From Cyanophora paradoxa CCMP329 (lineage: Eukaryota > Plantae > Glaucophyta), in NCBI GenBank assembly GCA_004431415.1, contig QPMI01000247.1, positions 1-64,000 on the forward strand: DNA of 64,000 nucleotides, in the 5' to 3' direction. Positions 28,531-39,269 of this stretch are shown here, piece by piece. The notes beneath the pieces are model-generated. The model was given only the letters and a program-made list of their open reading frames with translations, was not told the origin of the DNA and searched no databases. Position 1 is the stretch's first letter; every line of letters starts with the position of its first letter. A program made the position numbers and the translations under genes.

Positions 28531-31500
28531 TCAGGTGCCGCCGGCGCCAACGTAGGTGGGGTAGTCCGTGAAGGACCGGCAGAACTGCGTCCCCTCCGCG
28601 CTCCTCGAGAGGAGGCAGTAGACACCCGGGTCGGCGCTGCAGCTGATGATCTCGCCCCCGGCGTTCCGCTGGCCCGTGCAGCCGTACGAGTAGCACGCCC
28701 CCGTGACCGTCTCCCACGAGTAGACCGGGAAGCCCCTGCCCGCAGCCGGGGACGGTCAGATCTAGATCCGGAGGGGTCTGGACGATCTAGACAGATCTGC
28801 CGACGTCGCGCACGCGATCTGGTTGAAGGTGCCGTCCTCGCGGAACGCCGTCCCGCACGTACCGTACCTGCGCGTGCGCGTGTCGGCACGGGCCGCGCGC
28901 GCGGCGAAGGGCAGCGCTGCGCTGGCGGCAGGGGGCGCGGGCACCTGGCCGTGTCGAAGGTGCCGAGGGACGTGAGAGTGCCGAGCGTGCTGTCGCTTGC
29001 AGCTGCGCGCGGGGACGTCCCCTCAGCGGTCGCGCAACGGGCTTACAATCAGAAGCTTAAGGGCCGAGCGAGCGCCGCGGGCGCACCGCTGCAGCCGAGG
29101 CCGGGCTCGGACCACGTGAAGGACCCGACGGCGGCCTGGAAGGCCTTCTCGGCGCAGGCGGCGAGCGAGGCCGCCGTGAGGGGCTCCGTCTCCGACGCCG
29201 TCAGCCGCACGGGGTAGAGGGCGAGCGAGGTGGAGTCGGAGACGGTGCCCAGGGCCGACGGCTCGGTGTAGACGAGGCGCTCCCGGACGAAGCAGCCGAG
29301 GTACCGCGCCGTGTAGCACGTCGTCGTCAGGACCACCTCGTTGGCCACCGGCGACCCCGTGCCCGAGCCCGAGCCCGAGCCGCTGCCGCTGCCCGAGCCC
29401 GAGCCGGAGCCCGAGCCGCTGCCCGAGCCCGAGCCCGAGCCCGAGCCGGATCCACTGCCCGAGCCCGAGCCCGAGCCGGTGCAGTTGGAAGGCCCGAGGT
29501 ACGCTGCGCGCGGAGCGGAGCGGGCCGGGGCCGGCGTCAGCGGGATCGAAGTTCGGGATCGAAGAAAGAAGAAATCAAATCGGCGGACACGCGGGACCCG
29601 AGTAGACGTCCACGGTTCTACGGGGACGGGAGCGCATCAGTCCTAGATCTTCATGCGCATGCGCATGCATGTGGGCCTCGCACAGCGGGTTGGAGGCCGT
29701 GCCGCAGCCGACGCTGGAGGCGGCCGGCCCGAGGGTCTGCACGCTAGAGAAACTCCCGTCCGGCGTCGCGACGCACGTCGCCCCGTTGGTGATCCCGTAG
29801 TACCTGGCCCCGGCCCCGGCCGCGGCCCCGCCGCCCTGTCACAGGCCGAAGCAGGTCGCGATCGGGCGTGTCGGCCGGCAGCGCGGGCACCGCATGTAGG
29901 GGTTGTCCGCCCCGCCCCCAGAGGAAACGGAGGTGTAGACGAGCTTGCGGCACTCGGTGATGTTGGACGCGGTGGAGAGGGTCACGACCCAGAGCATCTG
30001 CCGGCGGCGCGCGGGCGGGCGGGCGCGCCGTCAGAGGGCTCCAGCTCGAGCTCGCGATCGCGATCGCGATCGGCCGGCGACGCCGTCGGCCCGCGGGCCA
30101 CGAACCTCGTCGACCGGCTCGGCGGTGGCGGATGACTTGTAGCACCCAACGTGCGTGAAGGACTCCCACGGGTCGACGCAGGGCGCGGTGGGCACCGCCG
30201 GCACGGTCGGGTCGGTCGGGTACGTCGGCACGGTCGGGTCGGTGGGGATGGTCGGGAGGCCCGTGCCGGGATCGATGCCGCCGGAGCCACTGCCGCTTCC
30301 GCTGCCACTGCCGCTGCCGCTTCCGCTGCCGGAGCTGCTGCCTGTGCCGGGGATCCCTCCGAGGCCCGGGTCGGGGATGGTGGGCGGCTCGATGCGGGGC
30401 GGGATGGCCGGCTTCTTCGGCGCGTAGTAGTACTCCTGCGCCTGCTGCTGCGCCAGGATCGCCTCCTCCAGCGACTGCCGGAAGTTCCCGTGCTGCGGGG
30501 GAGAAGAAAGCCCGCCGGTGCGAGTACACATCCAACGATTCCGGTCACAGCTCGGCCCAAGAAAGGCCCGGGCGGGGCCGGCGGGCTCGGGCGCGCACCT
30601 TGAATGGGACGTACTTGCTCGAGGAGGAGTCGCACTCGTTGCCGGAGCAGACCTTCTCGCAGCGGAGGCCGCCGCGGCCCGCCGGGCAGTAGCACGCCCC
30701 CGTGATCTGGTCGCACACGCCCTGGCCCGAGCAGTCGCATGCTGTGTGCGAAATCGAATTTCGAAAATGGTCAAAAGCTGCAGGACATGCGCAGCGCGGC
30801 AGACAGCGGGGGCTGGCGCGCGGACCCTGGCACTGCAGGTCGGAGGCGCGCAGGAAGAAGCCCTCCTCGCACTTCTCGCAGAAGGTGCCGACGTACTTGC
30901 CGCTGCAGACGCAGGCCTGCGTGGCGCTGTCGAAGGTGCCCCGGCCCGAGCAGTCGTTCGCCGGCGCCTGCACGCTCGCTGCGCACACGCAATCGCAAGA
31001 CGCGAGACGCCTCAACCTCAGAACTGACAGTGACGAAATTTAAAGATCGGGGCGGGGGCACCGCAGGGGTCGGAGGGGGAGCTGGGGCCGGAGTACTGGA
31101 GGCTCTCGTCGGCGGAGATGGCGCGGGCGACGACGGCGCAAGCCGCCCGCACGACCGTCTCCGGCGAGAGGTCGTAGTACTTCCTGCCCGCCCCGCCCCC
31201 GCCGGCATCCGAAATCACGGCGGAATCCCGCGGGCGCGGGGGAGCGCATGCGCACAGCTCGGTGACGTATTCGACGTTGGAGGGGAAGTTGACGGAGGTC
31301 TGGACGCGGGTCTGGCCCGGAGGATAGTAGACGAAGGCGACCTGCCGCCCGTCGTCGCTGACGAGCGGCAGCACCGGCAGGCGCGCGTTGGCCCCGTTCG
31401 AGCGGTAGTCGCCCCCGAAGGGGACCGTCCGCGCCGCGATGAGAGGGCGCTCCGCCTCCAGGTCGACGATCTGTAGCGTCGTCGCCGTCTGCCACACCGC

Positions 31501-37500: not shown

Positions 37501-39269
37501 CGCGGGTCGGACGCAAAGAAGGCGAAACGAGAGATCTTTGGATCGGGTCGGGTTGGGGAGGGGCCGGCGCACGCGGATGTACTTGACCTGGTCCTCCGTC
37601 GCCTTGATGTGCGTCTTCGAGTCCTCGATCTGCACGCGCGGGCGGCGCGCGCCGGCGTTCAACTCGGCTCCGGCGCCGGCGGGCCGACGGGGGCTCTAGG
37701 CCCAGGCCCAGGGCCGCCAGGGCCGACCTTCTCGAGCCAGTTCTCGGCGTCGACGAGCTCGTGTCCGGAGAGCAGCTTGTCCGAGCGCGGCTTTCTGCAG
37801 GGGCCGCCGCCGGCCGGCGCCGTCAGCCCGCGCCGCGGGAGAAGAAGAGAAGAGAGGAGGGAAAGGACGCACGACCCGGCATCGATCCACTCGCGCGCCT
37901 TGACGAGCTGCGACGCGATCACGGCGCAGGTGAGGGGCGATTTCTACAAGTGCTTTGCGCGGGACGGGGCGGGGGGGCGGACGAGGCGGGTGTGGGTGCG
38001 CTGGGACTCCATGTCGGTTCGGAGGACGCTCTCGATGGACTTGAACGCCACCTCGAACTGGCCCGGCGCCGTCATCGGGATCCAGTTGATGCTCGACAGC
38101 ACCTGCGGGGCGGGGAAGAAGAAGTCAGGAGGGAGGGAGGGGGGGGGGGGGGGGGGGGGTAGGACCTCGGGGACGCCCTCCGTGGTGCGGACGAGGACGG
38201 GGACCATCTTCTTCTTGTTCTCCACGGCCAGGTCCAGCCTGCGCGAGCGCGCGCCCCGGCGTCGCCCGCGCGGCCCGGCGGGGCGGGGCGGGAGGGCGGG
38301 AGGGCGGACTCGGCCTGGCACTCGGGGGAGCTGGCCCAGTCGGGGGAGAGGAGGAAGACGGCGGCGTCCGAGCACTCCACCCCCGACGCGATCTCTGCCC
38401 GCCAGTCTGCGCCCCGCCGCCGTCGGGGCTTGCCCCGCGGGGTCTGGCGGGGGGAGGGCGGGCGGGCCGACCTGTCCCAGGGGGGATGTCTTCCCTGAAA
38501 GGGAGTGGGGGGGGGGGGGGGGGGGAGGATGCAGGGGTCAGATTGTTTTCAGCGCAGGCGGCCGTGCCTTCGCTCTCGCGCACCAGTCAACCTGCGGAGC
38601 GCGGCGCGAGCGAGTGAGCGCGGGCGGGCCGGGGCGTGCCAGGGCGGGCGGGGCCCGGGGCCGCCCCGCGGGGGTGGGCGGACCCAGATGTCGAAGCCGG
38701 CGCCCTCGAGGGCCGTCACGAGCTGCCGCGCCGCCGCCGTGTCCCGCCGCGAGTACGAGAGCATGCTGCCCGGCCGCCGCGTCAAGGCGGGGTTGGGAGG
38801 GCGGGGCGGCGGCGCTGGGGCGGCGCTGGCGGGCGCGTCGCACAAGTCGTGGTGCCCGCCCAGGCCCTTGCTCGCCGCGCCCTTCTTTGCCGCCTGGACG
38901 TTCCCCGGGCCCCGCTGGCCCGCCGGCGCGCTGGCCGAGCTCGGGTGCATGTGCATCACCGCGACCTTCACGTCGCTCGCGACCGGCGACGGGCCCCGGG
39001 GCGCTGGCGCCGGGGACGGGCCGCGGGGCGCCGGCGCGGGGCCGCTTCCGGGGTGCAGATGGATAGTCGTGCCCTCCGCCGCCGGCGCCGGCGCTTCATC
39101 TGCGGACGCGACGCCGCGGCGTACGCGTCAGCTGCAACGCCAACCGCGCCGGCGAGGATTCGGAGGTGCGGCGCATGCGCCGCCTGCTGGGCGCACCGAG
39201 CGAGGCCGGCTGCTTTGGGTCGGCATCTCCGGGCCAGAAACTGCTCCACAGCTTCACCGCGCTCTGCAT
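28531..39269 (-). CDS. TIR domain - helical linker - single TM - WD40/beta-propeller - EGF-like x2 - WSC-like x2 protein (candidate TIR receptor; many introns)
   Basis: Likely ATG at 39269 (MQSAVKLW). TIR_2: [93 protein letters not shown]. Linker: [76 protein letters not shown]-like [77 protein letters not shown] and [29 protein letters not shown]-like [21 protein letters not shown] and YLGCF. Stop TGA at 28531. Confidence 0.82.
29362..29478 (-). repeat. Coding (Gly-Ser)n linker between WSC-like modules; a second GS run at ~30283-30340
   Basis: cccgag hexamer array on the + strand reads GSGSGS on the - strand. Confidence 0.9.

Follow-up and report, generated by a model that had tools for sequence, protein, structure and literature searches.

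Described transfers of TIR domains from bacteria to eukaryotes, of which Dictyostelium TirBCD is an example, have moved the bare domain. According to PMC13142454, TirBCD is an intronised, membrane-tethered protein with a bacteria-derived, C-terminal TIR of the CAP12/TIR-STING clade that keeps its catalytic Glu. Animal Toll-like receptors and the EGF-transmembrane (TM)-TIR proteins of molluscs and annelids are single-pass receptors with an outer sensor, EGF modules outside and an inner TIR, while TIR and WD40 occur together in the TIR-NBARC-WD40 protein of Chondrus crispus and in bacterial nSTAND/NACHT-WD40 proteins (PMC9806590, PMC8195603). Here we analyse a gene on the minus strand of a 64,000-nucleotide window of the glaucophyte Cyanophora paradoxa CCMP329 (assembly GCA_004431415.1, contig QPMI01000247.1, positions 1-64,000), which an earlier note had described as a whole bacterial TIR-TM-WD40 chassis with eukaryotic modules appended. 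The gene (28531..39269, 46 coding exons, 45 introns) encodes 2,188 amino acids (aa), and its direct relatives are bacterial TIR_2 (PF13676)-linker-TM-WD40 proteins, annotated merely as 'TIR domain-containing' or 'WD40 repeat protein', with which it shares the order of TIR, linker, helix, stalk, first-blade position and two-Cys tail. With modest confidence, and from sequence comparison, we lean towards the explanation that a glaucophyte ancestor acquired the whole gene from a non-cyanobacterial bacterium and that its product may now serve as an inverted Toll-like receptor that cleaves NAD+. The frame is of bacterial type, but less whole, older and less unique than the earlier note assumed, and likely of horizontal rather than endosymbiotic origin.

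The Cyanophora protein departs from each of these systems in informative ways. It shares the membership features of the bacterial family, namely a TIR_2-type domain, a linker directly after the TIR, one membrane helix and a two-Cys tail, here internal, but differs in having two recognisable repeats rather than many, 556 residues after the tail (bacterial median 6), a 108-aa N-terminal extension and 45 introns. Compared with TirBCD, it carries the linker, helix, stalk and tail along with an N-terminal TIR. Animal Toll-like and EGF-TM-TIR receptors have the opposite polarity (type I, with a C-terminal TIR), an LRR or EGF-only ectodomain and a TIR that scores at most 47 bits on the family profile; in the Cyanophora protein the TIR lies N-terminal of the sole membrane helix, and the exons scanned gave no LRR match. 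STAND-WD40 proteins have the tail in common with it and, to a weak degree, also the last part of the linker. The kinship to STAND proteins that had been proposed is nevertheless not borne out, as the direct relatives have no STAND ATPase, and, unlike NLR and STAND proteins, the Cyanophora gene shows no STAND ATPase, keeps TIR, linker and helix contiguous and has its helix between TIR and repeats.

Judged by sequence, the TIR and linker are homologous to those of the bacterial family. A low-complexity extension without a signal-peptide-like hydrophobic stretch (aa 1-108, 38849..39269; all features given here are on the minus strand) is followed by a TIR domain (aa 109-232, 38019..38848) that scores 122 bits on a bacterial profile and matches Pfam TIR_2 on exon pieces. 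The helical linker (aa 233-303, 37458..38018) carries the motifs HTRLL..A.EW, LL.G..L..AE.WL and Y I.AS and scores 56.9 bits by itself; HTRL closes the exon at 37983, LVKAREW opens the following one and, after a further 14-residue stretch, an intron divides QVKYIR|AS. Together, TIR and linker reach 186 bits on a profile built from 45 sequences, all bacterial, on which the best solved chain, Cat1, scores 53.5 bits and the best eukaryotic TIR among such chains 46.7 bits. Glu180, whose codon is divided by the intron 38239-38309, occupies the TIR catalytic position, a column that is Glu in 982 family domains, and is among the 20 of 27 strongly conserved family columns retained here. The single membrane helix (aa ~311-333, 36971..37436) has basic residues on its N-terminal side, is predicted to run N-in, C-out and is the only one in the protein, with a hydropathy of 3.24 for aa 312-330 against 1.56 for the second-best stretch. 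Beyond it, the assignment of a coiled-coil-like stalk and pre-first-blade motif (aa 334-412, 36582..36970) is weak: a post-linker bacterial profile aligns co-linearly with aa 290-523, spanning helix, stalk, motif and first blade, at 6.1 bits, the pre-blade motif alone reaches 8.6 bits (best of 2,000 shuffles 6.5), and an earlier post-membrane profile gave -2.7 bits at the expected place. The motifs named in the earlier note thus all lie on the minus strand in the order it gave, and the bacterial homology it proposed holds for TIR, linker and, at 12.4 bits, tail; its spacing does not, as 17 extra residues separate AEAERQ from LSLLLGV.

The bacterial family covers at least six phyla. A linker-motif pattern run on 9 of the 64 parts of GTDB gave 122 loci (about 900 expected overall), a motif-selected sample rather than an unbiased best-hit search, and 124 of 125 proteins match within query residues 109-360, with identities of 35-44% across some 200 aa for the top hits. 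A profile search of 1.84 billion representatives returned 5,451 at E<=1e-30, the top 150 being unnamed multi-TIR proteins that are uninformative for finding eukaryotes. A membrane helix follows the linker in 73 of 80 members, with more basic residues on its N-terminal side, and behind this block 37 of 52 scanned members have WD40 propellers and the others CHASE2, SH3, ARC6-IMS or TPR. The model of a bacterial member (predicted local distance difference test, pLDDT, 93.5) consists of a TIR and then three helices, and its listed fold matches are TIR-containing, at 13-26% identity. Against NCBIfam the family matched nothing above cut-off, against PADLOC it gave generic TIR or repeat matches, and comparison with Thoeris yielded weak TIR cross-hits far below NCBIfam cut-offs; no effector is adjacent and members stand alone. 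A word-based search of proteins up to 2,000 aa with one TIR/linker frame matched 0 of 583 candidates, tblastn of two pieces against plasmids found nothing, the ESM Atlas gave one weak TIR_2 lead and nothing for an ectodomain piece, and three pattern matches in viral contigs included no TIR-linker (at most 18.7 bits). No paper on the bacterial family or the Cyanophora gene was found in a literature search that mostly covered work outside subscription journals. In some bacterial members, three to eight TIR-linker copies stand in tandem ahead of the membrane helix, and the protein ends in WD40 or CHASE2 domains (P0121-P0269; L007, L009, L027, L043).

The claim of a whole chassis is not borne out in the ectodomain (aa 413-1593, 31177..36581), which appears to be a diverged, lengthened region rather than a preserved WD40 propeller. 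Two WD-type repeats, at 36246-36281 and 33811-33989, are significant on a bacterial WD-repeat profile (11.2 and 20.4 bits, where shuffled domains reach 5.7 at best), Pfam WD40 matches one exon weakly, the single-sequence fold of one ectodomain exon has a pLDDT of 30.9, and a metagenome search with an ectodomain exon matched 0 of 561 candidates. At the far end, the tail exon (aa 1592-1632, 31062..31183) encodes the two-Cys C-terminal tail of bacterial members in its non-cyanobacterial subtype. A profile built from 50 bacterial tails gives residues 1594-1632 a score of 12.4 bits; 2,000 local shuffles reach at most 5.9, and elsewhere in the window the highest-scoring six-frame piece has 5.4. This is a subtype profile collected from bacterial tails alone, and significance is confined to it; the weaker profiles gave 1.2 bits (unselected) and 3.3 bits (9 sequences). 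As had been proposed, the motif is a C-terminus in bacteria, lying within 25 residues of the protein end in 56 of 70 members. The distance from linker motif to tail is 1,354 aa in the Cyanophora gene against a bacterial median of 772 (n=70), about 580 longer. These distances to linker and end indicate that the ends of the frame were retained while the middle diverged and expanded.

Eukaryotic additions begin exactly where the bacterial protein would stop. A phase-1 intron (30979..31061, joint in 4 of 4 runs) comes directly after the tail's last Cys; the two exons behind it (30599..30978) encode laminin-type EGF repeats (Pfam EGF_laminin, PF00053, 24.3 and 22.2 bits; cut-off 21). The first EGF exon is phase 1-1, and 11 of the 45 introns are phase 1. 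A phase-1 intron joined to a phase 1-1 exon is the pattern of shuffled extracellular modules, which is suggestive of exon shuffling at the old C-terminus. Of the modules said to be appended, EGF is thus supported, while WSC stays unconfirmed: the four-Cys module at 29602..30165, seen in sequence, and a second one in the spliced contigs, which together with a Cys-rich C-terminal piece occupies 28534..29315 and has no family match, may be WSC-like, by motif. Exon pieces gave no match to Pfam WSC (PF01822), whose pattern has eight Cys where each module has four. A WSC search of 301 actinobacterial genomes and 14 controls gave no match, a PDB search with one module returned nothing, and comparison of the two modules shows no significant likeness (129 of 1,000 shuffles).

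The sequence is a real, spliced host gene, and a single one. A 47-exon model includes one non-coding exon, the 5' untranslated region (39409..39639, from spliced contigs), with in-frame stops upstream of the ATG at 39269, a start that lies beyond the limit of 38770 given previously; the stop is at 28531. One spliced contig of 5,969 nt covers 39639 to 29889, linking the TIR with the first four-Cys module, and the running lengths of the model agree with it at 14 of 14 checked offsets. This substantiates the single-gene model over that span; the last ~235 aa lie on separate contigs past a Gly-Ser repeat spacer (29348..29490), at which the RNA contigs break with no contig bridging it, and are joined by open frame alone. 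Contigs from public runs splice out introns at 15 joints displayed in one comparison and 14 in another; run X12 has none of those 14 and retains the introns. The runs are not labelled RNA on record, and the contigs used are those that skip introns retained in X12; junctions not displayed were placed by splice signals and frame, constrained by contig running lengths. Every RNA-like run compared contains spliced transcripts. The intronisation proposed earlier is thereby borne out: of the 45 coding introns, 38 are GT-AG and 7 GC-AG, and an 8-nt micro-exon lies within the TIR (38584..38591, read from contigs of 4 runs as the letters left between the sides of a joint). The window is GC-rich and eukaryotic, the gene is intron-rich, and GC content at third codon positions (GC3) is 0.95-0.98 across the TIR, ectodomain and EGF parts, which, with the 45 introns, points to long residence in the host genome. 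Contamination is ruled out by the 45 spliceosomal introns and host-like GC3. Intron density is 16.5 per kb in TIR and linker and about 5.5 in the ectodomain.

Of the two routes put forward in the earlier note, horizontal or endosymbiotic transfer, homology to a bacterial family stands and the endosymbiotic route is disfavoured by the type of tail. Bacteria have two tail subtypes. The Cyanophora tail scores 18.2 bits on the non-cyanobacterial one against -3.3 on the cyanobacterial one (20 equal-depth controls, 5.4-18.9), and its subtype was seen in Chloroflexota, Acidobacteriota, Actinomycetota and Pseudomonadota. The cyanobacterial subtype is found in 12 of the 18 cyanobacterial members of a first set, and, among 40 further cyanobacterial members that partly overlap it, 27 have that subtype and none that of the query, the remainder ending in CHASE2, TPR or other parts or being incomplete. 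By genome, the query subtype occurs in at least 9 of 301 cyanobacterial and at least 32 of 301 Chloroflexota genomes, with a TIR-linker in 0 of 12 cyanobacterial frames. The best placements in quick trees adjoin non-cyanobacterial rows; the query is unplaced among 140 rows and stands beside two Anaerolineae rows in a 60-row tree (SH-like approximate likelihood ratio test, SH-aLRT, 84). A non-cyanobacterial tail favours horizontal over endosymbiotic transfer, and horizontal transfer from a non-cyanobacterial bacterium is likely.

TIR, linker and tail homology in bacterial order, together with the intron at the old C-terminus, make entry of one whole gene the best reading. A bacterial gene would have entered a glaucophyte ancestor intact and gained introns, EGF modules being appended after its tail. 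The protein is predicted to be type II and single-pass, with the TIR in the cytosol and the propeller-derived and EGF modules outside; some 1,850 residues, holding 44 of 46 Cys, would be exposed, and N-glycosylation-type sequons are uninformative on topology (0 seen against 0.6 expected inside). A ligand outside, most probably a glycan or protein on the surface of a microbe or neighbouring cell, would cluster the stalks, upon which the TIRs would cleave NAD+. This clustering model is drawn by analogy with TIR enzymes, which require self-association according to PMC9806590, and with membrane-tethered TirC. Because spliced transcripts occur in ordinary cultures, the product would be a messenger rather than a trigger of cell killing. 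It is somewhat more likely than not that the TIR is an active enzyme; an immune or biotic-sensing role is close to an even matter, falling slightly short of it. Many tested TIRs of unicellular eukaryotes are active (10.64898/2026.04.20.719644) and TIR genes are linked to virus resistance in a haptophyte (PMC12489294). More tentatively still, inverted Toll-like receptors may form a family in glaucophytes, taken over entire from an unstudied class of bacterial membrane receptors with TIR domains and remodelled through exon shuffling at the old C-terminus, that would provide cell-surface TIR signalling through NAD+-derived messengers independently of animal Toll-like receptors. Whereas described transfers brought a bare domain, this one would have brought the receptor frame along, and, as an intron marks the junction with the eukaryotic modules, the steps of domestication are readable from one gene. 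The gene suggests that an early-branching plant relative, in which immune sensing is barely known, has a TIR receptor at its surface, and it exposes two families for direct assay: the bacterial TIR membrane receptors, which number in the thousands, and a rhizarian protein of high conservation with a TIR and two membrane helices (TIR-2TM).

Several observations weigh against whole-gene capture from such a donor. Just two WD repeats are detectable across about 1,100 residues, and STAND-WD40 proteins, some of them cyanobacterial (9 of 301 genomes), close with the same tail, so that a chimera of the N-terminal block and another WD40 gene with the same tail has to be reckoned with. The branch formed by TIR and linker is long (1.2-1.95), and the placement test leaves 44 of 141 positions standing (56 of 117 in an earlier set), among them 7 of 33 cyanobacterial ones and a position sister to the rhizarian group; for this reason the donor cannot be named. 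TIR-core identity is equal for the best bacterial and the best rhizarian-type protein, at 43 of 86. As regards function, a retained Glu is not proof of activity, according to 10.64898/2026.04.20.719644, and the defence role suggested earlier gains no support from the neighbours of the bacterial genes, of which 6 of 148 (28 loci) match PADLOC, mostly as generic kinases.

The alternative that fares best shares the origin and differs in function: it is possible, though on balance unlikely, that the TIR is a non-enzymatic scaffold, or that the protein serves adhesion or surface sensing unrelated to immunity. That bacterial members occur alone, without Thoeris-type effectors, and have an N-terminal block in common with CHASE2 sensors would fit such a role, as would the EGF modules and Gly-Ser spacers, which are generic surface modules, and the presence of spliced transcripts in every RNA-like run; retention of the 20 conserved columns, Glu included, and the activity of many tested unicellular TIRs argue against a scaffold.

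Less probable is a single old acquisition, ultimately bacterial, common to glaucophytes, Rhizaria and colponemids, with wide loss and differing C-terminal parts. In the TIR atlas table of PMC13142454, which is downsampled and has its cells cut at 400 letters, the TIR+linker block also occurs in Euglypha, Brevimastigomonas, Lapot, Bigelowiella, Gymnochlora and Colponema, so that it is present in chlorarachniophytes, a colponemid and a short, strongly conserved protein of cercozoans and their kin, and a motif search found 43 environmental contigs of rhizarian type, linked by cluster to a EukProt entry. Rhizarian-type sequences share the TIR, linker and helix with the query at 29-42% identity over the full block. 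A position sister to the rhizarian group has a P value of 0.19 in the approximately unbiased (AU) test, and an unconstrained tree puts the group close to the query. On the other side, best hits to the query are bacterial (148-156 bits, against 131 at best for rhizarian-type contigs), a place for the query inside the rhizarian group is rejected on all 18 branches, and the rhizarian-type protein, at about 265 aa with two membrane helices, is very slow-evolving, has no ectodomain, propeller or tail and carries none of three rare residues of the query. What the earlier note had offered as decisive, the grouping of best hits and phylogeny, is therefore divided: best hits are bacterial, but eukaryotic relatives exist and a sister position stands. 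The bacterial-type module is not unique to this gene among eukaryotes, and its gain is probably old.

Capture by a glaucophyte ancestor agrees with the other glaucophyte entries. The atlas table does not contain this 2,188-aa protein. Of its 9 Cyanophora rows, however, one has the TIR+linker block, in a protein of 1,569 aa that also matches a PD40 repeat, and so do 3 of 6 Gloeochaete rows, in one of which a hydrophobic helix and a stretch resembling a coiled coil come after the block; the closest-looking TIR entries to the query there are glaucophyte. The three rare residues (R, W and E) are jointly present in none of 993 bacterial and none of 34 rhizarian-type domains but, by eye, in 3 of the 4 other glaucophyte entries of the table, which suggests a glaucophyte clade predating the Cyanophora-Gloeochaete split.

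Endosymbiotic transfer from the cyanobacterial ancestor of the plastid is improbable: members are frequent among large cyanobacterial genomes (26 of 401), the gain seemingly precedes the Cyanophora-Gloeochaete split and the 7 cyanobacterial placements stand, but the query tail subtype is absent from all 40 cyanobacterial members checked, all 26 carrier genomes are at least 4.1 Mb, placements in the main single-TIR cyanobacterial clade fall 9.6 log units below the best, and motif searches of the atlas table, downsampled and with cells cut at 400 letters, found no red- or green-algal row.

Some further observations concern the relatives and the surroundings of the gene. The rhizarian-type protein (L198-L240) varies hardly at all over environmental contigs whose GC content ranges from 0.33 to 0.57, and it has about 50% identity to the bacterial family. 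It matches the EukProt rows of Euglypha, Brevimastigomonas and Lapot; no description of it was found in the literature searched. Near-identical rows labelled Euplotes, Coccolithus and Ploeotia may be prey or contaminants, and a Colponema entry (row 3613 of the atlas table) combines the TIR+linker block with an ion-channel domain and EF hands. PMC13142454 assigns the rows with the TIR+linker block to no supported clade, and its text mentions neither WD40 nor glaucophytes. At 28200-28734, the 3' contig extends several kb past the gene end in runs X1 and X5 and stops ~150-200 bases on in X7 and X8, the extension likely reflecting overlap with a convergent neighbour. Elsewhere in the window, a minus-strand frame at 55937-57316 matches the AAA ATPase family PF00004.

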